From NCBI GenBank assembly GCA_963824095.1, contig CAWGNS010000009.1:128256-192255 (forward strand): 64,000 nt of DNA, read 5' to 3'. Shown one piece after another: positions 10,674-56,854 of the stretch (its first letter is position 1; each line of letters starts with the position of its first letter). Under the pieces are notes generated by a model, which saw only the letters and a list, made by a program, of their open reading frames with translations, had not been told where the DNA came from and did no database searches. The position numbers were made by a program, and so were the translations under genes. This stretch comes from Terriglobia bacterium (lineage in GTDB: Bacteria; Acidobacteriota; Terriglobia; Bryobacterales; UBA6623).

Positions 10674-10681
10674 AGTCGCAA

Positions 10682-15715: not shown

Positions 15716-15863
15716 CGCAGGGCTGGCGCATTTCCGGACCTGCGGCTTTTTGCCTGGCCCCACGCCCGCAAGTGCGCCCGGTTCCAGCACTTGCGGCCTG
15801 TTACTCGGCCTCCCCAAATGCCCCAAAAGCCGCAGGTCTGGAAATGCGCCAGCCCTGTGCTAC
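15712..15863. repeat. MITE/REP-like inverted-repeat element, family 1, copy B (152 bp)
   Basis: Arms GTAACGCAGGGCTGGCGCATTTCCGGACCTGCGGC (15712-15746) and GCCGCAGGTCTGGAAATGCGCCAGCCCTGTGCTAC (15829-15863). The TAA stop of the transglycosylase (15713-15715) lies inside the left arm. Confidence 0.7.
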
Positions 15864-15920
15864 GCGGGTTTCGAAGCGATTCTTGGGCGGGTGATAGACT
15901 GGGAGCAGGAGGCAGAAGAA

Positions 15921-23865: not shown

Positions 23866-23925
23866 GGGGCCCTACGTCGCGACGAATCGTCGACGCGGCA
23901 AACCTGGAGGTTCACGCCACGGGTG
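23866..23925. repeat. Family-4 repeat (GGGGCCCTACGTCGCGACGAATCG..GCGGCAAACCTGGAGGTTCACGCCACGGGTG), copy 1
   Basis: About 60-nt unit. Close copies lie at 33335-33394 and 40361-40406, with an inverted copy at 40209-40254. Confidence 0.6.
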
Positions 23926-24061
23926 CCGCTTCCGGCTTCGGTTGCTCCTTGGAGTACTGGTTCCGTCGCACGCCAAGAGGGCCTAACTCCAGGCCTCGCC
24001 GTTCCATGGCGAGGGACCGGTGGGCGCGCCTGTCTCTACTTTGGATTGCCTCGAGTCGGGA

Positions 24062-29426: not shown

Positions 29427-29493
29427 GGTGTTGTGAGGCCTGGATACAGCATAGCGGGCGTGGCGGTGGCGGGGCGCAACCACCAGAATCGGC

Positions 29494-30126
29494 TTACAAC
29501 TGGCGCAGGAAGGGGTTGTGCTCGCGCTCGCGGCCGATGGTGGTTTTGCCTCCGTGGCCGGGAATGACGATGACTTCGTCGTTGAGCGGGAGCAGCTTTT
29601 CGTGGATCGAGAGCAGGATTTGGCGGCCGTCGCCGCCGGGCAGGTCGGTGCGGCCGATGCTATTGCGGAATAGCGTGTCACCGGCGACCAGCTTGTTTTC
29701 GTCCGGCAGAAAGAGGCTGATGCTTCCCTGCGTGTGGCCGGGGGTGTGCAGGATCTGGAACGGGTGGCCGTTGAGTTCGAGTTGCTCGCCGTCGCGCGCC
29801 GGCACGTCGATGTCCGGCTTTTCCGGCGTGGCCGTGCCCACCCAGGCGGCTTGCATTTCGAGTTGGCCGCTCAGCTCGATGTCGTTTTCATTCATGTAGA
29901 CGGGCGCCTGGGTTAGCTTTTTCAACTTGGCGGCGCCGCCGATGTGGTCGATGTGGGCGTGCGTGATGACGATGGCCTTGACGCGCAACTGGTGGCGGTC
30001 GAGGATCCGCTGGATCTGTTCGATGTCATCGCCCGGGTCGATGACGATCGCTTCTCGCGTCTGTTCGTCCCCGAAGATCGAGCAGTTGCACTGCAGAACG
30101 CCGACCGGGAGAATCTCGTGAATCAT
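29494..30126 (-). CDS. MBL-fold metallo-hydrolase (glyoxalase II-like)
   Basis: I moved the start to ATG 30126 (MIHEILPVG...). THAHIDHIGG (HxHxDH), HTPGHTQGS and GDTLF motifs. The N-terminal 245 aa of track ORF 29494..30861 is Arg/Pro-rich junk. Confidence 0.85.
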   Translation of the reverse strand: MIHEILPVGVLQCNCSIFGDEQTREAIVIDPGDDIEQIQRILDRHQLRVKAIVITHAHIDHIGGAAKLKKLTQAPVYMNENDIELSGQLEMQAAWVGTATPEKPDIDVPARDGEQLELNGHPFQILHTPGHTQGSISLFLPDENKLVAGDTLFRNSIGRTDLPGGDGRQILLSIHEKLLPLNDEVIVIPGHGGKTTIGREREHNPFLRQL

Positions 30127-32410: not shown

Positions 32411-33172
32411 ATGATCAGGGCCTACGGAATGTCTCATGTCGGCATGGTGCGTTCCAATAATGAAGACAGCTTCGCGACGGTGCCCGAACTCGGTCTGTTC
32501 ATCGTGGCCGACGGCATGGGGGGCGCCAAAGCCGGAGAGAAGGCCTCGCGGATCGCGGTCGAGACCGTAGTCGCCGAGATGCGCCGCGCCGGACCCAGCG
32601 CAACCCCGGAAATGCTGGCCGAAGCCGTCCATCTGGCCAACCAGAACATCCGCTGGGAGGCCGAGCAGAACCCCCAGGATTCGGGCATGGGCACGACCAT
32701 CGTCGCGGCCCTGGTGCGCGAGCCGATCGCGCATATCGTCAACGTCGGCGACAGCCGCGGCTACCTGCGTACCGGCGGCGAGCTCTACTGCATCACTTCC
32801 GACAATTCCTGGGTCAACGAGGTCGGCCGCGGGCTGGGCCTTAGCGAAGAGCAGTTGCGTTCGCACCCCTACCGCAACGTGCTGACCAAGGCGGTGGGCG
32901 CCGAGGAAAGCATCGAAGTGGCGGTTGAAGAAATCGAGCTGGTGCCGGGCGACGTGCTGTTGTTGTGCTCCGACGGATTGCATGGCGTGGCGGGTGAAAG
33001 CGCCCTGTTCGACGTGCTGTCGCGCGAAGACACGCTGCGGCGCAAATGCGAGGCGCTGATCACCGCGGCGCTCGATCACGGGGCTCCCGACAACGTGACG
33101 GCGGTGCTGGTGGAGGCCTTCGAGCCGGCGGAGGAAGAGATGAACGGCTCGGCAGCGTCCTCGGCGGGCTGA
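32411..33172 (+). CDS. PP2C-family Ser/Thr protein phosphatase
   Basis: I moved the start to ATG 32411. Motifs: MSHVGMVRSNNEDSF, FIVADGMGGAKAGEKAS, VNVGDSRGYL, LLLCSDGLHG and DNVTAVLVE. Confidence 0.85.
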   Translation: MIRAYGMSHVGMVRSNNEDSFATVPELGLFIVADGMGGAKAGEKASRIAVETVVAEMRRAGPSATPEMLAEAVHLANQNIRWEAEQNPQDSGMGTTIVAALVREPIAHIVNVGDSRGYLRTGGELYCITSDNSWVNEVGRGLGLSEEQLRSHPYRNVLTKAVGAEESIEVAVEEIELVPGDVLLLCSDGLHGVAGESALFDVLSREDTLRRKCEALITAALDHGAPDNVTAVLVEAFEPAEEEMNGSAASSAG

Positions 33173-33240
33173 TTTTTTTCGCTGCCCCTCACCACGAAAT
33201 TCCCCACCATACAAGGATCCTGATTCCCCTCCCATACAAG

Positions 33241-33501
33241 AACAGAGCCGCAGGCGTAAGCCGGCGGGCCGAGGCGGCGGGTCAGTCCGGTCATTCCCGG
33301 GCAGGTTTTGGTCTTTGCCCTGCTTCGCTGCGGCGGGGCCCTACGTCCCGACGCATCGGGACGCGGCAAACCTGGGGGTTCGCGCCACGGGTGGATGCTC
33401 CGACTTGGGTAAGCCGAAGGTGGATGCGGTTTTTAGGATGTGGGCTGCGCCGCGGGCTTTGTTGGCGGCTTGGCCCGCTGGCTTACGCCTGCGGCTCTGT
33501 T
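33241..33501. repeat. Composite inverted-repeat element, family 3 (261 bp), carrying a family-4 unit inside
   Basis: Left arm AACAGAGCCGCAGGCGTAAGCCGGCGGGCCGAGGCGGC (33241-33278) versus right arm GCGGCTTGGCCCGCTGGCTTACGCCTGCGGCTCTGTT (33465-33501). These are inverted copies of about 37 nt. The interior contains family-4 copy 33335-33394. Confidence 0.65.
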
Positions 33502-33575
33502 TGCTTGATTCTTGGCTGGGTTGCGGGGATTCCCCTGCTTGACCCAGCCCGCGAAATGGATTGAGGGGGCTTGGT

Positions 33576-34277
33576 CTAGCGCGGCGTGGGTACGGTTTCC
33601 TGGCCGGTGCGTTGTTCGCTCACCACCCAGCCGTCTTGCAGGTTGATGATGCGGTCGCTGGAGGCGGCGTTGACTTCGGAGTGGGTCACCTGGATGATGG
33701 TCGTGCCTTCGCTGTTGAGCTTCTTGAATAGCTCCATGATCTCTTTGCCCTGGGCGGTGTGCAGGTTGCCGGTGGGCTCGTCGGCGAGAATCAGCTTCGG
33801 ATGGGCGATGACGGCGCGGGCGACGGCCACCAACTGCTGCTGGCCTCCCGAGAGCTGGTTGGGGAACAGGTTCTGCTTGGCGACGATGTTGAAGCGGTCG
33901 AGGCAGTCGGCGACCATGCCGGCGCGTTCGCTTGACTTGACGTTGCGGTAGGAGAGCGGGATGTCGAGGTTTTCGTAGACCGTCAGGTTGTCGAGCAGAT
34001 GGTAGCTCTGGAACACGAAGCCGATGTACTGGCGGTTGAGCTGCACGCGGTCCTTGGGCTTCATCTTGTGTACGGGATGGCCGACGAAATGAAATTCGCC
34101 GCCGAACTCGCCGTCGAGCATGCCCAGGATCCCCAGGATGGTCGACTTTCCCGCGCCCGACGGCCCCATGATCGTCACGAATTCGCCTTCGCGGATATCG
34201 AGCGTGACGCTGCGCAGCACGTAGGTGCGGCCGTAGCCGGTCTCGTAGAACTTTTCGAGATTGCGTAGTTGGATCAT
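33576..34277 (-). CDS. ABC transporter ATP-binding protein (MacB/LolD-type)
   Basis: Walker [11 protein letters not shown]-loop, signature LSGGQQQ, Walker [12 protein letters not shown] and H-loop VTHS. Confidence 0.88.
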
Positions 34278-34458
34278 GTTGGTCTCGCGGGAACGACTAT
34301 CAGGACCGGAGGCCGCGTCAGGCCACTGCGCCGGGCGGCGCCGTTGCGTTCCGCCAAATCCCCTGGCCCGATTCTAGCGGTACTATCGCCAAGGGGCTTT
34401 TCGCGGCCGGGGCGCGGGCGTCGCGCTACGCCCCGCATAAGGCCGCCGGGCGTCTTTC

Positions 34459-35178
34459 TTAGGCTTCGCCCTCGGGCATCTCGCTTTCGTCGACGATGCG
34501 GCCGTCGAACAGGTGGATGTTGCGATCGGCGTATTTGGCGTAGCGCGGGTCGTGCGTGACCATGCAGATGGTGGCGCCGACGCGGTGCAATTCGCCCAGC
34601 AGGTCCATCACCGCTTCGCCGTTTTTGGAGTCCAGGTTTCCGGTCGGCTCATCGGCCAGCAGGATGGCGGGGTCGCCGACCAGCGCGCGGGCCACCGCGA
34701 CGCGCTGCTGCTGACCTCCCGAGAGCTGCGAGGGGTAGTGCTTCATGCGGTGGGCCATCGCGACGCGCTCCAGGGCGTGCTGCACGCGCTCCTTGCGCTC
34801 TTTGCCGGGCATGCCGCGGTAGGTGAGCGGCAGCTCGACGTTTTCATAGACGTTGAGGTCGCCGATCAGGTTGAACGCCTGGAAGATGAAGCCGATGTCG
34901 CGGTTGCGCACGCGGGCGCGGTCGCTGGCCGACAGATTTTCTACCGGCTGGCCCTTGAGGTGGTGCTCGCCGCCCGAGGGCGTGTCGAGCAGGCCCAGGA
35001 TCGACAGCAGTGTCGATTTGCCGCAGCCCGACGGACCGCCGATCGCCACGTATTCCCCCTTCTTGATCTCCAGATGAATGCCCGCCAGCGCGTGCGTTTC
35101 AACCTCATCGGTGTAAAACACTTTGGTTACACCGTTGAGGTGAATCATCGCTTCCCCGTTTGTCGTTCCGTTCGTCAT
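34459..35178 (-). CDS. ABC transporter ATP-binding protein (MacB/LolD-type), paralog
   Basis: GAGGAAG RBS upstream of ATG 35178. Walker A GPSGCGKST, signature LSGGQQQR, Walker [12 protein letters not shown] and H-loop VTHD. Confidence 0.88.
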   Translation of the reverse strand: MTNGTTNGEAMIHLNGVTKVFYTDEVETHALAGIHLEIKKGEYVAIGGPSGCGKSTLLSILGLLDTPSGGEHHLKGQPVENLSASDRARVRNRDIGFIFQAFNLIGDLNVYENVELPLTYRGMPGKERKERVQHALERVAMAHRMKHYPSQLSGGQQQRVAVARALVGDPAILLADEPTGNLDSKNGEAVMDLLGELHRVGATICMVTHDPRYAKYADRNIHLFDGRIVDESEMPEGEA

Positions 35179-35432
35179 GGTCTCTTCCTCGAAAATAGGT
35201 TCCGGTATTGTCGTTGCGAGCGGGACTTGCCGGTCGTTACCCGCCTTTTACGTGCTTTGGACGCGCCAGCGGCGAAGCCGATAGCCGCCGGCCGCTTTTT
35301 CCCTGGCCGAGGGCGCTTTCCCGGTCCGCGCGCCGACCGAATCGTTTGCCCGGCCGCCGCCGCGGCCTCCCCCCGGGGGCGCGTACCCAGCGGCAGGTCC
35401 GCTCCCTGCCGACTACATACGTCGCGGGCGGT

Positions 35433-36692
35433 CTAACGGTTCAATCGAATCCGATCGTAATTGTCCCAGGCCGACATATCCGACAGAATTACCTTGTCGC
35501 CTTCCTGCAGGCCATTGCGAATCTCGAAGTAATTGACCGATCCTTTGCCCAGCTCGACCTGGGTTCGGACCGCATATTCTCCGCCGGGCTGGATCTTGAA
35601 CAGCGAAATGGTGCTCTCGGGCTGGCCGTAAACAGGCCGGCCGACATAGAGTACGTTGTCGAGCCGTTCGAGTTCAATGGTGCCGTCGACGCTCAGGTCG
35701 GGGCGCGCGCCGCGGGGCAGTTCGCCGTCGAGCTGCACGTCGACGGTAACGGTACCCTCGGTGGAGGCCGGGTCGATGCGCATGACGGTGCCTGGGATGA
35801 TACCGTTGCGGGTGTCAATCTCGGCGTGCTGGCCGAACTGCACGTCGCGCACCTGGGTTTCAGGGATCCTCAGGGCGGCTTTGAGCCGTCGGGGGTCGGA
35901 GACGCGGGCCAGCACCGTTCCGGCCGTCACGAGTTGGCCGACCTCGACCTCCAACTGCTGCAGCACGCCCGAGATCCCGGCGCGGACCTTCAGGTCGTCG
36001 AATTCCTGTTTGCGCAAATCGTAGAGCGCTTGGGACTGCTCGATCTTGGCGCGCTGCGTCGCCAACTGCGCTTCGACCGATTTTCCGCGGATGTCAAGCC
36101 GCTCGGCCTCGAGTTTCAGGCGGATTCCCAACTGCTGCGCGGTGACCCGCGACTTGGCCAGAGTGAGCTGGTCGAGCAGTCCCGCTTTGGCCAACTGCTC
36201 GTCGGCCTGGAGCTGCGCCTTGGCCTGCTCGTAGTCGGATTCGACCTGCGCTTTCACCGATTCCTGGTCGAGGCGCTCGGTCTCCAGACGAGCGCGAATC
36301 GCCTCGAAATCGGCCCGGTCAGCCTTGAGCTGCGTCTCGACGTTGAAGACTTCCTGCTCGAGCTGCGGGCTGCTCATTTCCAGCAGAATCGTGTCGGCCT
36401 GGACCTCCGAGCCGGGCAGTAGCAGCCGCTTCACCACGCGGCCCTCGCGCTTGGCGGGGATGAAGACGATGCTTTCCGGGACCAGGGTGCCCAGCCCGCG
36501 GACCGAACGCATCATCGGACCGCGCTTGACCGTATCGGGGAATACGGTTCCCATCTCGACCGTCGGCGCCGCCGGCTCCAGCCGCGACAGGCCATAGGTC
36601 ACCGCGGCGATCGCCGCCAGCCCGATCACCGAGTAGATGATCCGTTTGATGCGGCGCTTGCGGGCGAAATCTTTGCGCTGAATATCGGGCAA
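35433..36692 (-). CDS. Periplasmic adaptor subunit (MacA/HlyD family membrane-fusion protein)
   Basis: TTG start with GGAG 9 nt upstream. N-terminal anchor IIYSVIGLAAIAAVTY. Long coiled-coil hairpin (Q/E/A/L-rich) lies between beta-barrel-like segments. Confidence 0.8.
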   Translation of the reverse strand: MPDIQRKDFARKRRIKRIIYSVIGLAAIAAVTYGLSRLEPAAPTVEMGTVFPDTVKRGPMMRSVRGLGTLVPESIVFIPAKREGRVVKRLLLPGSEVQADTILLEMSSPQLEQEVFNVETQLKADRADFEAIRARLETERLDQESVKAQVESDYEQAKAQLQADEQLAKAGLLDQLTLAKSRVTAQQLGIRLKLEAERLDIRGKSVEAQLATQRAKIEQSQALYDLRKQEFDDLKVRAGISGVLQQLEVEVGQLVTAGTVLARVSDPRRLKAALRIPETQVRDVQFGQHAEIDTRNGIIPGTVMRIDPASTEGTVTVDVQLDGELPRGARPDLSVDGTIELERLDNVLYVGRPVYGQPESTISLFKIQPGGEYAVRTQVELGKGSVNYFEIRNGLQEGDKVILSDMSAWDNYDRIRLNR

Positions 36693-36788
36693 CTCAAAAC
36701 TCCTGAGCGGGAAAAGGTCTTACCCGCTGATGTCGCGTCTGCGCCGCGGCTGCGTCCCTTGTGCGGCGTAGCGTGACAGCCCTGCTTG

Positions 36789-36804
36789 TGCAGGCGGGGG
36801 GCCA
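36789..36804 (-). promoter_or_regulatory. Candidate sigma-54 (-24/-12) promoter for the adaptor/ATPase operon
   Basis: The minus strand reads TGGCCCCCCGCCTGCA. TGGC and TGCA have the canonical GG-to-GC register. It lies 97-112 nt upstream of the adaptor start. A sigma-54-dependent activator gene sits just upstream on the same strand. A perfect 12-bp palindrome GGCGATATCGCC lies at 36867-36878. Confidence 0.35.
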
Positions 36805-36949
36805 TTTGGTCTGGCCGGTTTAACTTACTGAAAACAAGCCGAAAAAGGCACCTCGGGTGACATTCGGGCGATATCGCCGTCCGATTTTGGGACGATACCA
36901 TTTCACCTGTGGGACCGTAGACGCCGACACTTCCATCCTACAGCCGACT

Positions 36950-37093
36950 GTAGCGCAGGGCTGAAGCTTTTCCAGACCTGCGGCATGATTTCGGCTGGAG
37001 AGAAGAGGGCAAGATCGGGGACATCTTCCTTGCGGTTCGGTCCAGCGTCCCAAAAAGCCGCAGGTCTGGGAAATGCACCCAGCCCTGCGCTAC
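36950..37093. repeat. MITE/REP-like inverted-repeat element, family 1, copy C (144 bp)
   Basis: Arms GTAGCGCAGGGCTGAAGCTTTTCCAGACCTGCGGC (36950-36984) and GCCGCAGGTCTGGGAAATGCACCCAGCCCTGCGCTAC (37057-37093). It lies 34 nt downstream of the kinase stop. Confidence 0.7.
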
Positions 37094-37126
37094 GGGGCGG
37101 CGTGCGGCCCCCGGGTTGGCGGCAGC

Positions 37127-38456
37127 CTACGCCGCGGTTTCCAGCGGCAGGCGCAGCTTGGCGATGCAGCCTTGCGGGCCCTGGCGGTTTTCCAGCGTCA
37201 GGCTTCCGCCGTGGTTTTCGGTGATCTTGCGGCAGAGCACCAGGCCGATCCCCGAGCCGCCGGGCTTGGTCGTGAAAAAGGGGACGAACAGGTTGGCTTC
37301 GCTCGACAGGCCGGGGCCGTCGTCTTCGACCCAGACTTCCAGATGGCGCTTGTTCCGGCTCCAGCCCACGCGGACTCCGCCGCCGGTTTCGCCGGCCGCG
37401 TCGGCGGCGTTGCGGATCAGATTGATCAGCAGTTGCTCGAGCTGGTCGCCGTCGGCCTGCACGTTCAACTCGGGACCGGCGTCGATGTGCACCGGCATGC
37501 GGGTTTCGAGTCCGGCGGCCCGCTGCACCCATTCGGAGACGTTGACCGTCGCCAGGGTCGGCTCGGGCAACTTGGCGAGGCGGGCATAGGCGCTCATGAA
37601 GCGGCTGAGCGAATCGGCGCGCGAGGCGATCACCGAAAGGCCCTGCTGCATATCGTCCTGCCAGTCGTCGGTTTTGGGGCGCGAGAGCAGGCTGGCGAGG
37701 CTGGCGGCGATGGACTTGATGGGAGCCAGCGAGTTGTTCAGCTCGTGGCCGATGACGCGCACGAGGCGCTGCCAGGCTTTGAGTTCCTCTTCGCGCAGCT
37801 CGCGGGTGAGGTCGGAGATGACCAGCAGGGTGTGGCGTACGCCGTGCTCGCGAAACGAGCTGCGGCGGACGCTCCAACGGCCGGCGCCGCCGGGGAAGGT
37901 CATCTCCATGGTGCGGCTGCGTCCTCGTGTGAAGCAGTCGGCGAGCCCGATTTCGTCTGCCCCATGGCCCACCAGCCGCTCGGCGGGCTTGGCCAGCAGG
38001 CGGGCGCCGGCACGGTTCACCAGTTGCAGCCGCTGCTCCTGGTCGAAGGCGAATACGGCGACGTCGATCTGCTCCATGACGGTGCGCAGCAAGCGTGGCG
38101 GCCTCGATGGCGTCGAGGCGCTGCTCGCGCAGCATGCGGCTCATCGAGTTGATTTCGTACATCACCTCGCCCAGCGCGTCGCGCGAGGCGCGCGCCCGCA
38201 GCGAGTAGTCGCCCTCGCGCAGGGCGGCCAGCAGGTTCGACAAAGTGCGCAGCGGATAGACGACGCGCTCGCGCAGCGCGAAGGCGAAGCCCAGCCAGAA
38301 GCCGAGGATCAGCACCGACAGAGTCCACTGGACCTTGGGCGTATAGTCGCCGCTCCACAGAAAGATCATCGCGATCAGCACGGCGGGCAGACCGCCGGCG
38401 AGGGCGTAGAGCAGCACGCGCCGTTCGTGGGGCATGGGGCGCTTGGGTTGGGTCAA
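37127..38456 (-). pseudogene. Sensor histidine kinase (2 TM + HAMP-like + PAS + HisKA + HATPase) split by a 1-nt frameshift (or sequence error)
   Basis: The N-terminal 122 aa are in the frame of track ORF 36903..38456 (TM helices LLYALAGGLPAVLIAMIFLW and LSVLILGFWLGFAFAL). The rest is track ORF 37127..38092, with H-box IGHELNNSLAPI, N-box LINLIRNAADA, and G-boxes DDGPGL and GGSGIGL. The junction is at 38091-38093. Confidence 0.8.
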
Positions 38457-38586
38457 GGGTTTTCCAGCCGTTCGCTGTGGCGCGGGCCTCGGGCCGGCGG
38501 CGTCGACCTAGGGTCGACGTTCGCATGGGCCGGCCGCAAGGTATGTGACTGTCGTTTCCGAGCCTGTGCGTTTGGGCTGCTTGCTT

Positions 38587-38608
38587 GGGCAGGCCGGAGC
38601 CCTGCCCC
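38587..38608. repeat. GC-rich hairpin repeat (GGGCAGGCCGGAGCCCTGCCCC)
   Basis: 7-bp stem GGGCAGG/CCTGCCC with an 8-nt loop. A near-identical 32-nt stretch including the flank CACTGG(G)AT lies at 60262-60293. Confidence 0.5.
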
Positions 38609-38623
38609 ACTGGATCGCTCTAC

Positions 38624-39979
38624 TCACAGGCCATGCTTCTGGAGCCGGCGGTACATGGCGCTGCGGCTCAGACCGAGCGCTTTGGCGGCTTCGGTGACGT
38701 TGCCGTCGTTTTTCTCGAGTGCTTTTTTGATCAGGAAGCGCTCGACGTCGTCCAGGCTCATGTCTTCGATGCGGCCGGCGCCGTCGCGGCGGGCCTGCAA
38801 GCCGAGATCCGCCGAGGTAAGCTGGTCGCCTTTGGCCATCAGGACGGCGCGCTGCAACGCATGGTCGAGCTCGCGCACGTTACCGGGCCAGGGGTGGTCC
38901 AGGATGGCCTGCAGGGCGCCGTGGTCGAAGCCGCCGGTCTCTTTGCGGTAGCGCCGCGCATAGCGCTGCAGAAAATGATTCGCCAGCAGCGGAATGTCTT
39001 CCTTGCGCTGCCGCAGCGGCGGCAGATGGATCTCCACTGTGTTGAGGCGAAACAGCAGGTCCTCGCGAAAGCGCCCTTCGTCGACCTCGCGGCGCACGTC
39101 GGCGTTGGTGGCCGAAACGATACGTACGCTGACCTGGCGCGATTTCGACGAGCCGACGCGCTCGACCTCGCCGGTTTCGATCACGCGCAGCAGCCGCGAC
39201 TGCTGGTTCATGCTGATGTTGGCGATTTCGTCGAGAAACAGCGTGCCGCCGTTGGCCAGCTCAAAACGCCCGATGCGGTCGGTGTTGGCGCCGGTGAACG
39301 AGCCCTTGATGTGGCCGAACATCTCGCTCTCGAAAACGCCCTCGACCAGGCCGCCGACGTTGACCGACACCAGGGGCTTCGCGGCGCGCGGCGAAATGGC
39401 GTGCAGCGTCTGCGCCACGACTTCCTTGCCGGTGCCGTGCTCGCCGGTGATCAGCACATTGGCGTCGGAGGGCCCGACGCGCGAAATCATTTCGAGGATC
39501 GGCCGCATCACGGGCGAATCAGCGATCAGCTTCGGCAGCCCCTCGCCGCGCAGCAGCTCGTTTTCGGCTTCGAGGTGCTCGCTCTGGCGCAGCGCCCGAG
39601 CCAGTTCGACCTGCGTGCGAACGATGGCCAGCAGCCGCGCATTGTCCCAGGGCTTCTGGACGAAATCACGCGCGCCGCGGCGCATCGCCTCGACGGCCAC
39701 CTCGACGCTGCCCCAAGCGGTCATCACGACGACCGGCAGGGTGCTGTCCACCGCCTGGATCTGCGAGAGCAGGTCGAGGCCCTCTTTGCCCGAGGTGGTG
39801 TCGCGGGTGTAGTTGAGGTCCATCAACAGCGCGTCGAAGTCGTCCTCTTCGAGGGCTTTGAGAACGCCGGCCGGCGAGGTGACGGTTTCGGTGAGGAAGC
39901 CCTCGCCCTTGAGCAGCAGCCGCAGGGCGGTGAGGACGTCGGGCTGGTCGTCGGCGACGAGTAGTTTGGGTTTCTGCAT
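38624..39979 (-). CDS. Sigma-54-dependent Fis-family response regulator (NtrC-type: REC + AAA+ + HTH)
   Basis: REC domain with DDQPDV...DLNY. AAA+ Walker [15 protein letters not shown]-type loop (GSFTGA), ESEMFGH and Walker B LFLDEI. C-terminal Fis-type [28 protein letters not shown]. Confidence 0.9.
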
Positions 39980-40208
39980 TCCTTCTCTCGGACCCTGGGG
40001 CCGGGGCGGTCTAGAGAACGCAATCCGGGGGCCGCACCCCAGTCACACCGCCTAACGTATTGTAACTCTTTGGTTTTCAGTGGATTCCTGGATCAAGGCT
40101 GTGGCTGTGGAGTGTCCGCTTTTGGGACGATGGCGGTCCCAACTCTGCGACGAGGGTTCTGGAATGGCGGTTGTGGCAATGAGCATCGGCTGCAGAGGCG
40201 GAGATCCG

Positions 40209-40406
40209 CCACCCGTGGCGTGAAGCTCCAGCTTTGCCGCCTTTCGATTCATCGATAGGTGTCTTGGGGAGGCGACGTGGTGCGTTTTGGGCGCGTGAGG
40301 AGAGGAGGGCTGGTGGAAGGGAGGCGGCTCGCACACACTGTGCCTCCCGGCCATGCATCGCGACGAATCGCGATGCGGCAAACCTGGAGGTTCACGCCAC
40401 GGGTGG
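40209..40406. repeat. Inverted pair of family-4 units (46-nt arms, about 106-nt spacer)
   Basis: CCACCCGTGGCGTGAAGCTCCAGCTTTGCCGCCTTTCGATTCATCG (40209-40254) is the near reverse complement of CGACGAATCGCGATGCGGCAAACCTGGAGGTTCACGCCACGGGTGG (40361-40406). Confidence 0.6.
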
Positions 40407-40495
40407 CGATGCAAGCCTCTGGAGTCTTCGGGGCCGGCTCGTTGCTGGGCCCGTTCGCTGCTGGGCCGGGGCACGATATGGCCTCGGCCTGGAAA

Positions 40496-41533
40496 TCAGG
40501 GTTTCAGATGAACCTGGAAGAACTCGATCAGGGCGTCAAAGGCTTCCATCGAGAAGCCGTGGTGCCCCGGTTGCTGGTGGACGACGAAGTTGCCGGGCTT
40601 TCCGGCTTGCTCGTAGGCCGGGCGCACGATGCTCAGGAAGCGATCGACGGCGGGTTTGGGCATCGCGATGTCTTCGGTGGGCGCCCAGAGCATCAAGGGG
40701 CGGGGGGCCATGGCGGCGGCGAAATCGGCCTGGTCGCCTTTGGCGAGCATGCCGGGAATCCACCAGTAGGTCCCGTGATAGCCCAGGCTGCCCTGCTCGA
40801 TGAACAGGGCGATCGAGCCGACCCCGCCGCAGATCGGCGCCGCGGCGGCGATGCGGCTGTCGAGCAGCCAAGTATAGAAGGTCGTGATGCCGCCGAAGGA
40901 AAGGCCGGTCATGCCGATGCGGCTGGCGTCGACGTCGGGCCGCTTTTCGAGGTAGCTGAGCCCCTGGCGGATCTCGTAGAGCACGGCCCCCATTTCGGTG
41001 CGCCCCTGGACCAGCAGGGCATTGGCTTGCGCGTTGCTTTTGGGCACACGGCGGTCGAGCCCGCGCTGCGTGATCGCCAGCGCCAGGTAGCCGCGGCGGG
41101 CCAGCTCGCGCGCCCAGCCGAGCAGCCGGTCGTGCGGCTCGCTTCGGCCAGGGCCCTGCCAGGGGCCGATGACGAACTCCTTGGTCGACATCGATTCGCG
41201 GCTACCGCTGCTCCCATGCAGGCAGACCACGGCGGGCAGGCGACCAGCGGGTTTCGCCGGGCGGATCACGAATGCCGGTACGACCTCGCCGTCGAGGGAG
41301 ACCCACGAAACGTCCTCGGTGACCAGGCCTTCCTCTTCCTGCGTGCCGTGAACGGTGACCTCCACCTGGGGAGCCTCGGCCGGGATTTTCAGCAGATCGG
41401 CAAACGTGTTGCGGGCGACGGTGCTGTAGGGGGAACTCTGCGCCGGGGCAGACTGGCCGGCCGCGGTGAGCAGCAGCGCCCCGCAAATCAGGGAACGCCA
41501 AAGATTCTGACGGATGAATCGCGATTCCAACAT
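40496..41533 (-). CDS. Secreted alpha/beta-fold hydrolase (dienelactone hydrolase / acetyl-xylan-esterase-like)
   Basis: Signal-like LICGALLLTAAGQSAPA. Nucleophile elbow GLSFGG. VVCLHGSSGS and a C-terminal PGHHGF (His) context. Confidence 0.75.
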   Translation of the reverse strand: MLESRFIRQNLWRSLICGALLLTAAGQSAPAQSSPYSTVARNTFADLLKIPAEAPQVEVTVHGTQEEEGLVTEDVSWVSLDGEVVPAFVIRPAKPAGRLPAVVCLHGSSGSRESMSTKEFVIGPWQGPGRSEPHDRLLGWARELARRGYLALAITQRGLDRRVPKSNAQANALLVQGRTEMGAVLYEIRQGLSYLEKRPDVDASRIGMTGLSFGGITTFYTWLLDSRIAAAAPICGGVGSIALFIEQGSLGYHGTYWWIPGMLAKGDQADFAAAMAPRPLMLWAPTEDIAMPKPAVDRFLSIVRPAYEQAGKPGNFVVHQQPGHHGFSMEAFDALIEFFQVHLKP

Positions 41534-41572
41534 GCACCTCGCCCGTCCATTCTACTAGCGGAGGCCATACCC

Positions 41573-41625
41573 GTGGAACAGACAATCCTGTCTGTTTCCC
41601 GTAGAGACAGGCGGTCCCGCCTGTC
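41573..41625 (-). promoter_or_regulatory. Conserved leader module, copy L1 (palindrome AACAGACA-n4-TGTCTGTT plus GAGACAGGCG hairpin) upstream of the hydrolase
   Basis: The minus strand reads GGACAGGCGGGACCGCCTGTCTCTACGGGAAACAGACAGGATTGTCTGTTCCACG and ends 39 nt before ATG 41533. The same core lies at 44417-44441 and 46954-46978, with a diverged copy at 51990-52017. Confidence 0.5.
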
Positions 41626-41795
41626 CGCGCCGCAGCCGCGTCCGCGCTGTGCCGCGAAGGGGCGAGCGCTCGGTCGCTGGCTCAGACAGTAGCGCGCCAG
41701 CGTCGTCGAGGAGCCGGGCGTTATGCGGAGTGCCGCTTGCCTTGTGCTAAGAATTCGTTGGGTGTCCCTGCTTAGGCCTCGCCGCTTCGCGACGA

Positions 41796-41893
41796 GGGAC
41801 AGGCGGGAGCGCCTGTCTCTACCCAGCACAGGCAGGATTGCCTGCGCCACATGCAGGCGGGATTTGCTGCACGCAGGCAACCTCGCCTGTGCC
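41796..41893. repeat. Cluster of short GC-rich hairpins directly 3' of the first ADOP gene
   Basis: GGGACAGGCGGGAGCGCCTGTCTC (41796-41819). AGCACAGGCAGGATTGCCTG (41825-41844), which is identical to 44491-44510. Weaker TGCAG..CTGCA and CAGGC..GCCTG stems extend up to 41893. Confidence 0.55.
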
Positions 41894-41895
41894 GG

Positions 41896-44406
41896 CTACT
41901 CGTAGCGCAGCGCGGCCATCGGATCCGTTCGCGCGGCTCGCCGCGCCGGCAAATAGGCAGCCACGGCCGCCACCAGCAGCAACACACCGGTCGCCGCCGC
42001 CATCGCCAGCGGATCGGTCGCCGAGGTCTGATAGAGCAGGCTCGCCACAAGCCGCGCCACTACGAAAGCGCCCGCCAGGCCGATCGCCACTCCGGTCGCG
42101 ACCAGCCCCAGCGACTCAATCAACACCAGGCGCAGTACGTTGGCGCTCTCGGCGCCGAGCGCCAGACGAATGCCGATCTCGCTGGTGCGGCGGCTGACGT
42201 TGTAGCTCATCAGCCCGTAGAGCCCCAGCGTCGCCAGCAGCAAAGCCAGCAGCCCGAACGCCGCGGTGAGCTGCATCATCAGACGCTGCCGGGTGAGCAC
42301 GCGATCGACGCGGTCGTCCATGGTCAGGATGTCGTTCACGGGCAGATTGGGTGCGGCCTCGGCCAGCGCCGCCCGCACTGCCGACGCGACCGCGGCAGGA
42401 TCGCCGCTCGAGCGCACTTCGAGCGAGCTGAGATACTCGGGGCGCGCGGCCACGGGCACGAACATCAGCACGTTGGGCTTCTCGCTCGCCGAACGAAAGT
42501 GCACATTGTCCACGACTCCGACGATCTCGATCGTATCCTGTGGGCCGCCGCCTGTCTTGATGCGGCCGCCGACGGCCGAACGGTTGGGGAAGAAGCGTTC
42601 CGCCAGCTTGCGGTTGACGACCGTAACCAGGGGAGCGCCGTCGCGGTCTCGATCGGTCAAACCGCGGCCGTCGAGCAGGCGCATGCCGACCGTCTCGAAG
42701 TATTGCGGCGTGACGAAGACCTGCTCCACGTCGTGGTCTTCGCCCTCGGCGTAGGTGTAGCCCTCGACATCAACCGAATTCGTGCGCGTGGAGCCCCCGA
42801 GCAGCGAATAGATCGACAGGCTGGCCGATTGCACGCCGGGGATGGCGTCGACCCGCTCGAGCACGCGCTGGTAGAGTGGCGTGAGCTGCTCGCTAGTAAA
42901 CCCGGCGCCTCGCGGATCGATGCCCGCCACCAGCACGTGCGACGTATCGAAGCCCCAATCGACGTGGCGCAGGTTCTGCAGGCTCCTCAGAAACAGGCCG
43001 GCGCCCACCAGCAGCATCAGCGACAGGGCGACCTGCGAAACCACCAGCGCGCGGTTCAGCCCGAACCGGGAGCGTTCGGCGATGCCGCCGCGGGTGTTGA
43101 CCTGCAGCGTCGGCGCAAGGTCGAAGCGGGTGGCGCGCAGCGCGGGGACCAGTCCGAACAGCAATACGGCGAGTAGCGTCAGCCCCGAGGTGAACGCCAG
43201 CACGCGCGGGTCGATGCCCGCGTCGAGAGGCAGGCGCGTGGCGTCATTCGAAGCCATGCGCAGCAGCAGCTCGAGCGCCCAACTGGCCACCAGCAGAGCG
43301 ACCAGGCCGCCGGCGGCGGCCAGCAGCAGACTCTCGGTGAGCAGTTGGCGAATCAGACGCGCTCGCCCGGCTCCCAAAGCGAGGCGAACACCAATTTCTT
43401 TGCGCCGCGCCGTGGCCCGAGCCAGCAGCAGGTTGGCGATGTTGGCGCAGGCGATCAACAGCACAACGCCCACCACGGCCATCAGCAGGATCAACGGGTC
43501 GGCGTAGCTCTCGCGCATGTTCGAGAGCCCTTGCGCGGCGGGGACGAGCGTCGCCCGCAGTTGGCGGGTTTTCTCGCGCTCCCGCTCACTCATGTTCTTA
43601 GCGGCGAGGTCGTAGATGTGGTGCTGGAAGACGACGTCCACTTCGGCGCGGGCCTGTTCGAGCGAGATGCCGGGTTTGAGGCGGCCAATCGCGCGCATCC
43701 AATAGATCTGCGCATCGTCGAGAAACGAGTTCTGGCGGGTGATCTGCGCCTGCATGGTCAGCGGCGCCCATAGGTCAGGCCGTTGGCCGACGCGCTCTCC
43801 AAAAAACTGCGCCGGGGCCACTCCCAAAATCGTGTAGTGCAGCCCATTGATGAGCAGCGTCTTGCCCGCAATCTCGGCGTCGCCTCCGAATTTTCGCTGC
43901 CAGTAGCCGTAGCTCAGCACAGCGACAGCGTCGGCGCCTGGGCTGCGGTCATCGCCCGGTTGCAGCAGGCGTCCTAGCAACGGGCGCACGCCGAGCACGT
44001 CGAAGTAGTTGCCGCTGACCAGTTCCGCCATGGCGGCCTCGGGGCTGCCGCCCGCCGAATTGGGTGAATCGCTGATGTACACCCGTGACATGGTGCTGTT
44101 GTGCGCCGCCACGCCTGCAAACGATTGCAACTCGTGTTGATAGGCGCGGAACATGGGATAAGAGACCGCGTGGTGCGTCGGCATCGTGGAGGTGGTAATG
44201 CCTTGATAGTCGCCGTCGCCGAAGTACACCAGCGCACTGGGTTTTTCGACCGGCAGCGTCTTGAGCAGAAGCGCGTCGATGAGGCTGAAGATGGCGGTGT
44301 TGGCGCCGATGCCGAGCGCCAGCGAAAGCACGGCCACGGCGGCGAAGCCCGGGTTGTGGGCCAGTGTGCGTAGCGCATAGCGCAGATCGTGCAAAAAGTC
44401 GGTCAT
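41896..44406 (-). CDS. ADOP-type duplicated FtsX/MacB-like orphan permease, tandem copy 1
   Basis: I moved the start to ATG 44406 (GGAG RBS): MTDFLHDLRYALRTLAHNPGFAAVAVLSLALGIGANTAIFS. First FtsX block ...VVLLIACANIANLLLARATARRKEIGVRLALGAGR. Second block ...SEIGIRLALGAESANVLRLVLIE. C-terminal DPMAALRYE. Confidence 0.85.
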   Translation of the reverse strand: MTDFLHDLRYALRTLAHNPGFAAVAVLSLALGIGANTAIFSLIDALLLKTLPVEKPSALVYFGDGDYQGITTSTMPTHHAVSYPMFRAYQHELQSFAGVAAHNSTMSRVYISDSPNSAGGSPEAAMAELVSGNYFDVLGVRPLLGRLLQPGDDRSPGADAVAVLSYGYWQRKFGGDAEIAGKTLLINGLHYTILGVAPAQFFGERVGQRPDLWAPLTMQAQITRQNSFLDDAQIYWMRAIGRLKPGISLEQARAEVDVVFQHHIYDLAAKNMSEREREKTRQLRATLVPAAQGLSNMRESYADPLILLMAVVGVVLLIACANIANLLLARATARRKEIGVRLALGAGRARLIRQLLTESLLLAAAGGLVALLVASWALELLLRMASNDATRLPLDAGIDPRVLAFTSGLTLLAVLLFGLVPALRATRFDLAPTLQVNTRGGIAERSRFGLNRALVVSQVALSLMLLVGAGLFLRSLQNLRHVDWGFDTSHVLVAGIDPRGAGFTSEQLTPLYQRVLERVDAIPGVQSASLSIYSLLGGSTRTNSVDVEGYTYAEGEDHDVEQVFVTPQYFETVGMRLLDGRGLTDRDRDGAPLVTVVNRKLAERFFPNRSAVGGRIKTGGGPQDTIEIVGVVDNVHFRSASEKPNVLMFVPVAARPEYLSSLEVRSSGDPAAVASAVRAALAEAAPNLPVNDILTMDDRVDRVLTRQRLMMQLTAAFGLLALLLATLGLYGLMSYNVSRRTSEIGIRLALGAESANVLRLVLIESLGLVATGVAIGLAGAFVVARLVASLLYQTSATDPLAMAAATGVLLLVAAVAAYLPARRAARTDPMAALRYE

Positions 44407-44416
44407 CGATCTCCTC

Positions 44417-44510
44417 GTGGAACAGACCATCCTGTCTGCTCAAGTAGAGACAGGCGCTCCGGCCTGTCCCCGCCACAACGCGGCGAGCACAGCACAGGCA
44501 GGATTGCCTG
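44417..44510 (-). promoter_or_regulatory. Conserved leader module, copy L2 (three hairpins) upstream of ADOP copy 1
   Basis: The minus strand reads CAGGCAATCCTGCCTGTGCT ... GGGACAGGCCGGAGCGCCTGTCTCTACTTGAGCAGACAGGATGGTCTGTTCCACGAGGAGATCGATG. The palindrome ends 9 nt before the ATG and abuts the GGAG RBS. Confidence 0.5.
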
Positions 44511-44528
44511 TACGACTAGTCATGACCA

Positions 44529-46943: not shown

Positions 46944-46953
46944 GTTGATTTCC

Positions 46954-46978
46954 GTGGAACAGACAATTCTGTCTGTTC
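46954..46978 (-). promoter_or_regulatory. Conserved leader module, copy L3 upstream of ADOP copy 2
   Basis: The minus strand reads GAACAGACAGAATTGTCTGTTCCACGGAAATCAACATG. The stem is 9 bp and ends 9 nt before the ATG. It occupies most of the 58-nt intergenic gap. Confidence 0.5.
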
Positions 46979-47001
46979 GGCTAGAGACGAGGCCGTGCCG
47001 G

Positions 47002-49413: not shown

Positions 49414-49428
49414 GTTCCGAGGCACCGC

Positions 49429-51954: not shown

Positions 51955-51989
51955 GCTTTCGCTCCTGGAACGAACCGCTGCCCACGACC

Positions 51990-52017
51990 GTGGGATAGAC
52001 AATCCTGTCTGGTCCCA
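51990..52017 (-). promoter_or_regulatory. Conserved leader module, diverged copy L4 upstream of ADOP copy 4
   Basis: The minus strand reads GGGACCAGACAGGATTGTCTATCCCACGG. It has the same CAGACAGGATTGTCT core and ends 35 nt before ATG 51954. Confidence 0.4.
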
Positions 52018-52406
52018 CTAGGGACCGGCAATTCCGCTGGTCGCCCGCCGGGTCAGCCGTGGGCAGGCCACGCTCACTGCCTCCGCTCGAAAGATCCTCA
52101 CGGATATGCACCTCGGATGCCGCACCCGATCGGTTCGTAAATCTAGGAATCTAAAGGAGAAAGAGGGGGCGCTGGCCGTCCGCTTCTGGGAAAGTGTGTC
52201 TCGGAACCGGGATCGGGGCGCGGGGAAGCGCCGTACGTGGGTAGCAATTCGGGAAACGACTCGCTGCCGCCGCCGGGGCCGGCGTGGCATGCGGCCCGCA
52301 CCACCTCCGGTGCGGACCTTTCGCCGGGCTTGTAGCTCTGTTGCCCGGCCCGCGGCGTGGATGTCCGGGCCGTAAGAAATGCGCCGTAAGAAATCAGTTG
52401 GCGGAA

Positions 52407-53633: not shown

Positions 53634-53639
53634 GCGTAT

Positions 53640-56003: not shown

Positions 56004-56010
56004 CGGGAAG

Positions 56011-56748: not shown

Positions 56749-56854
56749 GATGGGGCGGGGCAGGGAAGCGAGGTCGCGGCCGGCCCGGCTGTGGAATCCC
56801 GGGGCTGGCGCATGGATGTTCACCGCCGGCCCCATGCTTCTGATTGTCGCGCAG

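Follow-up and report, generated by a model that had tools for sequence, protein, structure and literature searches.

The solved MacB-type systems (MacB, LolCDE, BceAB, and YbbAP) use homodimeric ATPase domains. In MacAB-TolC, a type VII ABC system that works by mechanotransmission, the ATPase is fused to the permease, and one gene encodes MacB, which forms a homodimer. LolCDE and DarBCD/YbbAP combine an asymmetric permease (LolC/LolE; the duplicated DarB and YbbP) with separate LolD/DarD/YbbA-type ATPases, using one ATPase gene (homodimer) and a fixed, cis-encoded permease set. BceAB-BceRS of the Firmicutes links a type VII ABC transporter with the 10-TM permease BceB to an OmpR-type regulator and a two-component kinase that has two TM segments and almost no extracellular loop. 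Sharing of one ATPase module by many substrate-specific membrane components encoded elsewhere is a feature of group II ECF transporters (EcfAA'T with exchangeable S components), whose energising module is heterodimeric, and of MsiK/MsmK systems, all of which are importers with unrelated folds; no equivalent shared energising module for MacB-type exporters or ADOPs was found in the literature searched. A 2025 survey reported that predicted sigma-54 promoters are enriched in front of COG0577 permeases and COG1136 ATPases in gamma-Proteobacteria, Opitutia, and Bacteroidia (PMC12316311), with no mention of Acidobacteria, ADOPs, an enhancer motif, an ATPase pair, or permease-less operons.

We analysed a 64-kb stretch of DNA (the window) in which an adaptor and two ATPases are encoded near several ADOP permeases. 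Judged from the sequence, this locus is probably one sigma-54-dependent regulon for a modular MacB-type (type VII ABC) tripartite extrusion system, and the best reading is that one adaptor and one ATPase pair would serve exchangeable ADOP permeases within it; the computational results that bear on this reading are the gene content, the synteny in relatives, purifying selection, and a common motif. The likeness to MacAB-TolC lies in ATPases near the MacB domain, ADOP halves with MacB_PCD and FtsX domains, and a HlyD/MFP adaptor alongside; unlike MacAB-TolC, the system has a duplicated single-chain permease with two separate ATPase genes, 0-7 permease genes per locus, sigma-54 two-component control, and an adaptor that is not a MacA equivalog. 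In contrast to LolCDE and DarBCD/YbbAP, there are two diverged ATPases and many alternative permeases, and in contrast to BceAB-BceRS, there are an NtrC-type activator, an ADOP permease, and an adaptor, in hosts that are diderm Acidobacteriota and Bacteroidota. Given the BceAB-BceRS likeness, the kinase may use the transporter for sensing; the likeness to ECF and MsiK/MsmK systems concerns the logic of ATPase sharing.

Gene content of the locus

Positions 33576-52194 form one co-directional 18.6-kb cluster on the minus strand, comprising an array of four ADOPs, a hydrolase gene, the regulators, and the adaptor/ATPase operon. From the regulator onward the order is NtrC-type regulator, histidine kinase, inverted repeat, sigma-54-like box, adaptor, ATP1, a 181-bp spacer, and ATP2; Pfam/NCBIfam searches and reading of the sequence found all of these where a preliminary description of this DNA had placed them. 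The sigma-54 activator (38624-39979) has REC, Sigma54_activat (AAA+ with a GSFTGA loop), and HTH_8 (Fis-type HTH) domains. The kinase (37127-38456) has two TM segments separated by only about 8-10 residues, followed by HAMP, PAS, and HATPase domains; it had been described as a single ORF, but a +1 T near 38092 (a 1-nt frameshift) breaks it into an N-terminal part (TM-TM-HAMP, 38091-38456) and a C-terminal part (PAS/HATPase, 37127-38092). The kinase gene of the related locus L005 is unbroken at this site and the ortholog in L210 is intact throughout (435 aa); should the frameshift prove genuine, this strain may misregulate the regulon. The inverted-repeat (MITE/REP-like) element (36948-37096; repeat families D14/D19/I4) does separate the kinase gene from the adaptor promoter, but measures 149 bp rather than the 144 bp first given, and has two further copies at 2118-2339 and 15705-15879.

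The adaptor (35433-36692, 419 aa) is of the periplasmic, membrane-anchored HlyD/MFP type, with matches to HlyD_3, HlyD_D23, and TIGR01730 (score 112 vs a cutoff of 95) and a MacA equivalog score of only 23 bits against a cutoff of 342. ATP1 (34459-35178), a MacB/LolD-type ABC ATPase, and its paralog ATP2 (33576-34277) each have an ABC_tran domain and are 45% identical; ATP1 has a canonical D-loop (GNLD) and ATP2 has all catalytic motifs with the D-loop Asp replaced by His. Their best NCBIfam matches are DarD, MacB, LolD, and FtsE, with YbbA alongside DarD and LolD, all with scores under the equivalog cutoffs; among solved structures they are closest to the MacB nucleotide-binding domain and to the Streptococcus pneumoniae MacAB-like Spr0694 (5XU1), with BceA also among the near solved homologs of ATP2. 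No FtsX-type ORF is present in 33000-36900, and seven permeases used as tblastn queries against this region reached an E of 0.25 at best, in agreement with the earlier report of an operon without a permease. Just past the 3' end of the operon, and outside the system, is the previously noted 261-bp element (33241-33501), which has terminal inverted repeats of about 30 bp.

The four ADOP duplicated permeases, located by TIGR03434 and tblastn maps, form a tandem array on the minus strand at 41896-51954 (49429-51954, 47002-49425, 44529-46943 with its start inferred by homology, and 41896-44430) and score 803-967 bits against the TIGR03434 cutoff of 622. Five orphan ADOPs had been proposed; the fifth permease (27018-29681) scores 484 bits, under the family cutoff, and is without an enhancer site in the window matrix scan or any link to the system that we could see. 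Between the array and the regulator lies, on the same strand, an alpha/beta-hydrolase gene (40496-41533; Abhydrolase_7/DLH matches), which is found in L005 and missing from L001 and L210; it may be a lineage-specific passenger, of uncertain membership in the system. The window also holds a self-sufficient ATPase-permease-adaptor system (52407-56835) and no outer-membrane factor gene.

Neighbourhoods in relatives and the ATPase pair

In related loci, the space that corresponds to the non-conserved 181-bp spacer (34278-34458) is in some cases occupied by ADOP genes. Both ATPases lie on one side of the adaptor gene in 23 loci, of which 15 lack an intervening permease and eight (L001, L004, L016, L019, L054, L123, L133, and L144) have 1-4 between the ATPases, with the two states interleaved by sequence similarity; in L009, seven permeases flank the adaptor/ATPase core. 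The permeases between or beside ATP1 and ATP2 score 802-1045 bits against the TIGR03434 cutoff of 622, which contradicts, for these relatives, the initial premise that ADOPs are defined by the lack of a linked ATPase. Three independent lines, synteny, the shared motif, and selection, support, computationally and for four of the five permeases, the proposal that the operon supplies an adaptor and ATPases to nearby ADOPs; supply "in trans" holds insofar as these are separate transcription units, but the units all lie inside one gene cluster.

Each ADOP is a single-chain pseudo-dimer of two MacB-like halves requiring two nucleotide-binding domains, which we propose come from ATP1 and ATP2. The halves carry MacB_PCD and FtsX domains, MacB being the only solved permease fold matched, and in a comparison of 22 ADOP paralogs, conservation within each half is highest at the N-terminal helix/TM1 and over the TM2-coupling helix-TM3 region. 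All FtsX-domain proteins typically have conserved coupling helices, so this pattern fits the model but does not discriminate. With cytoplasmic coupling regions kept and periplasmic domains diversified, the paralogs would therefore be exchangeable modules, each specific for its presumed substrate, on a common motor and adaptor, and the single membrane-anchored adaptor would join the engaged ADOP to an outer-membrane channel encoded elsewhere, for transport in the predicted outward direction.

Because ATP2 has His or Asn at the D-loop Asp position, ATP1 and ATP2 probably form an asymmetric heterodimer. The orthologs of ATP1 are 64-81% identical, and those of ATP2 are 60-97% identical across phyla; the D-loop position is D in 28/28 ATP1 orthologs and H (26) or N (4), never D, in those of ATP2. 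The module could instead be common to ADOPs with no ATP1/ATP2 heterodimer, the two forming separate homodimers (for example, ATP1 and the adaptor for one ADOP set and ATP2 for another) or ATP2 having a regulatory or sensing role toward the kinase. We consider this unlikely, though it is the strongest of the alternatives. It would fit the closest PDB matches (MacB, LolCDE, BceAB, and YbbAP), each deposited with a single ATPase sequence, as well as the long, non-conserved ATP1-ATP2 spacers and the adaptor-ATP1-permease arrangements lacking ATP2 in L074 and L163; moreover, since ATP2 occurs alone in L212 and adaptor-ATP1 occurs with no ATP2 within 10 kb in L052, L053, and L074, an obligate heterodimer is not established. 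However, ATP1 and ATP2 are found together in most loci with enough flank, the family-wide D-loop substitution confined to ATP2 suggests asymmetry, and the ADOPs are asymmetric themselves, with coupling motifs that differ systematically between the two halves in the 22 paralogs.

Enhancer-like motif and sigma-54-like boxes

At least 10 loci have, 5' of the adaptor gene, a conserved enhancer-like motif, GTCCCAnAAnCGGACAC, with a GG-N10-GC box downstream of it. A matrix trained on seven sites, all from other genomes, picks exactly three window sites, at 25.5, 19.3, and 17.8 bits (next match, 10.9); in 200 null simulations, the largest single score was 19.6, the mean maximum was 13.5, and the third-best score never exceeded 13.7. 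All three sites and their boxes are on the minus strand. The top match, TCGTCCCAAAAGCGGACACT (40111-40130), lies 5' of the regulator gene, as does an identical site upstream of NtrC in L005, and precedes the box CGGCCCCCGGATTGCG (40019-40034), which has correct GG-N10-GC spacing. The second, CTTTCCCAGAAGCGGACGGC (52175-52194), 5' of the four-ADOP array, has one core mismatch and a score that equals the extreme of the null maxima; the -24/-12 box cGGCATccgagGTGCA (52107-52122) follows this UAS at about 56 bp and precedes the start of the first ADOP by about 150 bp, and similar boxes come after the UAS in front of ADOP genes in L102, L106, and L140. The third, TCGTCCCAAAATCGGACGGC (36876-36895), lies 5' of the adaptor operon and is followed by TGGCCCCCCGCCTGCA (36789-36804), a box whose match is by itself not significant within the window and which takes its weight from equivalent boxes in orthologous loci. 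Sigma-54 box matches as a class are weak taken alone, with 23 two-mismatch matches in the window vs 28 expected.

The common motif at the regulator gene, the ADOP array, and the adaptor operon is computational support for the earlier suggestion of a modular system under sigma-54 control. A kinase with almost no periplasmic loop and the NtrC-type activator, the putative motif-binding protein, would switch on three sigma-54 promoters, each with an enhancer site 55-95 bp upstream, that drive the four-ADOP array, the regulator/kinase genes (autoregulation), and the adaptor-ATP1-ATP2 operon.

A blind metagenome scan with a 17-mer of the motif returned 120 loci, 63 of which are upstream of a system component at a distance of at most 700 bp (adaptor, 34; ADOP, 16; NtrC, 11; DUF4097, 1; ATP2, 1), while 54 have no recognised component next to them. 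Sigma-54-like boxes are found 40-70 bp downstream of the motif in scan loci. In several, the motif precedes one or two ADOPs on contigs of 7-14 kb in which neither an ATPase nor an adaptor was detected; three of these ADOPs score 838-917 bits with TIGR03434. The motif is likewise found upstream of DUF4097 genes and, in two loci, of genes of the TIGR03435 family, as would be expected if it marked a general stress regulon that happens to include ADOPs, with the operon serving a non-ADOP permease encoded elsewhere. A different duplicated FtsX permease is indeed close by (53640-56003), but it shares a compact operon with an ATPase and an adaptor of its own, and the permeases adjoining ATP1 and ATP2 in relatives are only ADOP or ADOP-like; we regard service to a non-ADOP permease as improbable.

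Selection on the permease-less operon

The adaptor, ATP1, and ATP2 are under purifying selection in permease-less lineages. In comparisons of the window with the permease-less L005 and L006, at dS of 0.3-0.6, dN/dS was 0.03 for ATP2 and 0.015-0.018 for ATP1, and that of the adaptor was 0.042 against L006. A decayed operon, whose adaptor and ATPase genes would have lost their function after deletion of the cognate permease, is therefore very improbable, even with a frameshifted kinase gene, surrounding repeat elements, and, in L001 and L004, a permease between ATP1 and ATP2 exactly where the window has its spacer. Every catalytic motif is preserved, 33000-36900 holds no detectable remnant of a permease, and a core of this permease-less kind is seen in at least 14 more loci, independently assembled and of several lineages. 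A permease in relatives at the position of the repeat element had been named in advance as a sign of decay. Some relatives do carry a permease, but theirs is placed between the ATPases and is an ADOP in its own right, which argues for the ADOP link rather than for decay. The low dN/dS at this dS implies that selection outlasted any permease loss by a long time.

The adaptor and paired ATPases with their two-component system

The minus-strand order given in the preliminary description (regulator, kinase, repeat element, promoter-like box, adaptor and two ATPases) is borne out by an open reading frame (ORF) listing and by HMM scans. The activator (38624-39979, minus strand; Response_reg, 80 bits; Sigma54_activat, 214 bits; HTH_8, 53 bits) combines a REC domain, a sigma-54 AAA+ domain and a C-terminal Fis-type HTH, which assigns it to the NtrC type; its GAFTGA loop reads GSFTGA. 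The histidine kinase described for 37127-38456 is present, but it does not form a single ORF. Relative to L005, a locus from a close relative, the gene carries one additional T near 38092 (38085-38100; ACGCTTGCTG versus ACGCTGCTG) and is split into an N-terminal TM-TM-HAMP ORF of 122 aa (38091-38456, minus strand) and a C-terminal PAS/HATPase ORF of 321 aa (37127-38092, minus strand). The gene is unbroken at this site in L005 and unbroken throughout (435 aa) in L210, another close relative. Either the kinase gene is genuinely a pseudogene, or the split is an artifact of assembly; while just one frameshift was found in the window, L005 has multiple frameshifts, and assembly error is hence plausible in the L005 data set. 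A real frameshift would imply that the regulon is mis-regulated in the window strain. With two TM helices approximately 8-10 residues apart, as read from the sequence, the kinase appears similar, purely by analogy, to the intramembrane-sensing kinases of Bce modules, which have two TM helices and a short gap; by contrast, Bce modules have an OmpR-type regulator and the 10-TM permease BceB, while the window encodes an NtrC-type regulator and permeases of the ADOP type (i.e., duplicated permeases of TIGR03434), which places it outside the Bce group.

The adaptor (35433-36692, minus strand) is a membrane-anchored protein of the HlyD/MFP type (TIGR01730, 112.3 bits versus a cutoff of 94.9; HlyD_3 and HlyD_D23) with an N-terminal hydrophobic segment, IIYSVIGLAAIAAVTYGL, as candidate membrane anchor, and is not a MacA equivalog (score of 23 versus a cutoff of 342). 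No gene for an OEP-family outer-membrane factor (TolC/OEP) was found within the 64-kb window; an OEP-family gene is located upstream of the adaptor gene in the related locus L004. The two MacB/LolD-type ATPases, ATP1 (34459-35178, minus strand; PF00005, 117 bits) and ATP2 (33576-34277, minus strand; PF00005, 102 bits), share 45% identity, and both contain Walker A, Q-loop, LSGGQ signature, Walker B with the catalytic Glu, and H-loop; motif reading gave THD in ATP1 and THS in ATP2. Neither ATPase reached the curated equivalog cutoffs for DarD, LolD, MacB, FtsE or YbbA; DarD was the top equivalog match (259 and 246 bits for ATP1 and ATP2, respectively, versus a cutoff of 375), with lower scores for LolD (227 and 185 versus 308) and MacB (226 and 202 versus 966). 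The nearest solved ATPase structures were 5XU1, MJ0796, MacB, BceA, LolD and YbbA.

The D-loop distinguishes the two ATPases. It reads GNLD in ATP1, with the canonical Asp found in 28 of 28 ATP1 orthologs, and GNLH in ATP2, where the canonical Asp (SALD/GNLD) is missing; ATP2 orthologs carry His (26) or Asn (4) and in no case Asp, a residue retained by 58 of the 61 other MacB-type paralogs in the examined loci. Asymmetric D-loops are a typical trait of heterodimeric ABC nucleotide-binding domains, and the asymmetry introduced by ATP2 would suit a single-chain permease that is internally asymmetric. A heterodimer of ATP1 and ATP2 may thus be predicted from these motifs, to which we give somewhat less than even chances; our confidence is lowered because some loci show ATP2 or adaptor-ATP1 on its own within 10 kb (L212, L052, L053 and L074).

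As the preliminary description had also reported, the operon encodes no permease; tblastn with seven permease queries identified neither an FtsX-type ORF nor a permease remnant in 33000-36900 (best E = 0.25, i.e., noise). ATP1 and ATP2 are separated by 181 bp. The adaptor-ATP1 spacer is unusually long (254 bp, 35179-35432; 255 bp in L210 and only 40 bp in the related locus L001), and its sequence is not conserved. L210 is a 95%-identical relative, yet its intergenic spacers are essentially unalignable with those of the window; the ATP1-ATP2, adaptor-ATP1 and kinase-adaptor spacers show approximately 50-58% identity, versus 86-92% for coding DNA. A conserved regulatory element or a deletion scar in the 181-bp gap was rejected, as this spacer is not conserved in L210. 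The window yielded no Rfam or tRNA matches, and predictions of terminators and sigma-70 promoters in the operon stayed at chance level.

Permeases in the window and in related loci

Four ADOP genes form an array at 41896-51954 (minus strand; TIGR03434, 803-967 bits versus a cutoff of 622.3), each chain with two copies of MacB_PCD plus FtsX. The array is not adjacent to an ATPase in the window, its nearest edge being 6.7 kb from ATP1. While the preliminary description had counted five orphan permeases, only these four are bona fide ADOPs; the fifth (27018-29681, minus strand) is a divergent duplicated MacB_PCD/FtsX permease that scored below the TIGR03434 cutoff (484 bits). No enhancer site accompanies this permease gene, and the lack of a copy at the syntenic position of L210 suggests a recent insertion or loss. 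Directly upstream of the array lies a self-sufficient compact ABC operon (52407-56835, minus strand) encoding an ATPase (56011-56835, minus strand), a duplicated FtsX permease of 787 aa (53640-56003, minus strand; no NCBIfam match at E<=1e-20) and an HlyD-type adaptor (52407-53633, minus strand). A fragment of approximately 90 aa (63512-63796, minus strand) aligns with ADOPs solely in their TM2-coupling helix-TM3 region (47-65% identity); it may be what is left of a truncated ADOP, or else the conserved core of a divergent FtsX permease that extends to the window end.

Conservation among 22 ADOP paralogs was highest in the N-terminal helix/TM1 and the TM2-coupling helix-TM3 segment of each half, with divergent periplasmic domains. 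This pattern, which is generic to FtsX domains, fits with a common cytoplasmic partner. MacB was the top solved-structure match for an ADOP permease (E = 1e-17), and no ADOP structure was found.

ATP2 is strongly conserved (75-97% identity in database relatives), and named matches were from Bryobacterales, Bryobacteraceae or Acidobacteriia. Neighborhoods drawn from a contig index and a scan of species-representative genomes, with genes mapped by tblastn, showed a constant core composed of the sigma-54 regulator and kinase, adaptor, ATP1 and ATP2, together with ADOP-like permeases, the number of which varied. The gene order was NtrC-HK-adaptor-ATP1-ADOP-ATP2 in L001 (HK, histidine kinase), ATP1-four ADOPs-ATP2 in L016, three ADOPs-ATP1-ATP2-NtrC in L058 and four ADOPs-ATP2-adaptor-ATP1-three ADOPs in L009 (Pyrinomonadaceae), and further orders included adaptor-ATP1-three permeases-ATP2-NtrC-HK in L019 (a gammaproteobacterium), adaptor-ATP1-ATP2-four permeases in L026 (Ignavibacteria) and adaptor-ATP1-three permeases-ATP2 in L018 (Mucilaginibacter). 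ADOPs reportedly received their name, which marks them as duplicated orphan permeases, in 2009, and, to our knowledge, the family description has their genes almost never next to one for an ABC ATPase. However, the acidobacterial permeases that separate or flank ATP1 and ATP2 orthologs scored 802-1045 bits against TIGR03434; ADOPs are hence not always orphans, and the preliminary definition of the family by lack of a linked ATPase does not hold in these relatives.

Among the 23 loci with both ATPases on the same side of the adaptor gene, 15 had no permease between the ATPases and eight had one to four. When ordered by similarity, permease-less and permease-bearing loci were intermixed. L087 and L004, for instance, have an adaptor-ATP1-DUF4097 layout in common, one without and the other with an ADOP. 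The closest relatives of the window (L005, L006, L210 and L211; ATP2 identity 95-97%), which come from independent samples and assemblies, were all permease-less, and in both L005 and L210 one ADOP gene is located a short distance upstream of the regulator gene.

Comparison of the window with the permease-less loci L005 and L006 by the Nei-Gojobori method yielded dN/dS values of 0.015-0.018 for ATP1 (dS 0.32-0.36), 0.03 for ATP2 (dS 0.57-0.60), 0.042 for the adaptor (dS 0.39) and 0.05 for the regulator (dS 0.34). These low values, together with the unalignable spacers, indicate strong purifying selection on the genes in the absence of a permease in cis. The alternative raised in the preliminary description, a decayed operon whose permease was deleted, is ruled out by the strong purifying selection in permease-less lineages (dN/dS 0.015-0.042 for ATP1, ATP2 and adaptor).

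A candidate enhancer motif and the proposed common export module

Upstream of the adaptor gene, many loci carry a near-palindrome with the consensus (T/C)GTCCCAnAAnCGGACAC, followed by a GG-N10-GC box (e.g., TGGCACCTGAAATGCA in L010 and TGGCACGGCGCTTGCT in L019); an enhancer pattern with N6 spacing returned nothing meaningful, the correct spacing being N5. A 20-nt matrix was built from seven sites, none of them from the window, and used to scan both window strands. The best three matches, all on the minus strand, were located 132 bp upstream of the regulator gene (40111-40130, 25.5 bits), approximately 220 bp upstream of the first ADOP gene of the array (52175-52194, 19.3 bits) and 184 bp upstream of the adaptor gene (36876-36895, 17.8 bits); the fourth-best match scored 10.9 bits. 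In 200 first-order Markov simulations, the mean maximum was 13.5 and the third-best match never exceeded 13.7, making the predicted activator site statistically strong. Outside of the training set, the matrix also identified sites upstream of the adaptor gene (L005 and L087), the NtrC gene (L005), ATP2 (L018), an ADOP-like gene (L014) and a DUF4097 gene (L007). In all three cases in the window, a GG-N10-GC box lies 55-95 bp downstream of the site; the one upstream of the adaptor gene is the sigma-54-like box TGGCCCCCCGCCTGCA (36789-36804, minus strand). Comparable boxes occur in other loci; the sigma-54 consensus alone showed no enrichment in the window scan.

The exact 17-mer of the motif was found at 120 or more loci in a metagenome collection, and in 63 of the 120 matches listed it was located no more than 700 bp upstream of a system component (adaptor, 34; ADOP, 16; NtrC, 11; DUF4097, 1; ATP2, 1). 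Sigma-54-like boxes followed 40-70 bp downstream. In several loci on contigs of 7-14 kb (L114, L192, L197 and L208), the site precedes one or two ADOP genes, with adaptor and ATPase undetected; in L102 it precedes ADOP-NtrC-HK, and in L203 a single site separates a divergent adaptor operon and ADOP gene. Three ADOPs of motif-bearing loci scored 838-917 bits against TIGR03434. Through these arrangements, ADOP genes that lie apart from any ATPase gene are linked to the predicted regulon that also comprises the adaptor/ATPase operon.

As the best supported reading of gene order and motif, the adaptor and ATPase pair probably serve ADOPs as a common module. The system would then perform modular type VII ABC extrusion, with exchangeable ADOP permeases drawing on one common adaptor and ATPase pair, and a dedicated two-component system and the conserved enhancer would drive all parts from sigma-54 promoters; the window permeases, which do not lie between the ATPases, would constitute a separate sigma-54 unit (41896-51954) upstream of the regulators. 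ATPase modules common to several transporters are known from ECF importers and MsiK-type ATPases, and the sharing principle is hence not new. In group II ECF transporters, one module serves many S components, to which the proposed ADOP sharing would be analogous. A wider, doubtful extension of this analogy concerns ADOPs as a whole, a large family that soil Acidobacteriota and Bacteroidota carry in tens of copies per genome. All ADOPs would then be interchangeable substrate-specific heads of one combinatorial type VII machine run by a dedicated sigma-54 two-component system, with a single asymmetric ATP1/ATP2 heterodimer and adaptor, and with the loop-less kinase sensing load via the transporter in a Bce-like manner.

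The common-module reading appears to be new in four respects, namely sharing in a MacB-type exporter family, the partners identified, the second ATPase with its D-loop mark, and the enhancer motif. In the literature searched on ADOPs, the function is given as unknown and only clusters or copy numbers are noted; the ADOP name is confirmed in PMC3914696, which describes one genome cluster of ten highly translated ADOP paralogs, and 28-33 ADOP copies are reported for Dyadobacter genomes (PMC11573002). A 2025 survey (PMC12316311) reported predicted sigma-54 promoters in front of FtsX-type permease and ATPase genes for gamma-Proteobacteria, Opitutia and Bacteroidia, with ADOPs and Acidobacteria unmentioned. 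Our searches on ADOP partners, on sigma-54 with MacB/FtsX, and for Ward et al. 2009 identified no prior description of a linkage between ADOPs and ATP1/ATP2. The analysis provides a testable parts list (two ATPases, one with a His/Asn D-loop, the adaptor, the NtrC-type regulator with the loop-less kinase, and the 17-nt motif), and the motif can be used to list candidate regulon members in any genome. If ADOPs do share this module, soil bacteria would widen the substrate range of an envelope pump by multiplying the permease only, and the MacB superfamily would gain a case of a common, probably heterodimeric, motor.

Other motif-bearing genes and intergenic repeats

A DUF4097 ('toastrack') gene was repeatedly found in the operon or directly 3' of the enhancer motif in relatives (L007, 2995-3789, with the motif at 2756-2775; L004, 6594-7367; L087, 9185-9970; and L121), and may represent a further regulon member; no DUF4097 gene was found in the window. 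The remaining 54 of the 120 17-mer matches listed preceded heterogeneous ORFs, with a TIGR03435-family pair as the only recurrent case along with one unannotated 135-aa ORF pair, and most of these matches were treated as chance or unrelated. The TIGR03435-family genes, members of a soil-bacterial paralogous family of unknown function, have the 17-mer 113-128 bp upstream in L105 and L111, the only two cases among the matches listed; the L111 protein scored 243 bits in a TIGR03435 scan, and the L105 protein groups with it by BLAST.

The kinase-adaptor interval holds a MITE/REP-like inverted-repeat element without Rfam match (36948-37096), one of three intergenic copies of approximately 150-220 bp (also 2118-2339 and 15705-15879) with inverted arms that contain CGCAGGGCTGG...CCAGACCTGCGGC. 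A second intergenic family (33241-33501, 40207-40408 and 23869-23926) has the common core CCACCCGTGGCG(T/C)GAAC..CCAGGTTTGCCGC. Its 261-bp member at 33241-33501, already recognized in the preliminary description, is real and has terminal inverted repeats of approximately 30 bp, and the copy at 40207-40408 is an inverted pair between a hydrolase gene and the enhancer site of the regulator. Short GC-rich intergenic palindromes (GACAGGCGGGAGCGCCTGTC and ACAGACAATCCTGTCTGT) were found around and between the ADOP genes (41571-41850, 44444-44490, 46952-47006 and 51988-52042) as well as at 2339-2385 and 23991-24039; they may represent REP-like elements or terminators, or else a further binding site. 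The direct-repeat families D1 and D7 stem from two large FG-GAP/ASPIC (UnbV) repeat proteins and TPR proteins encoded at 7275-13951 (plus strand).
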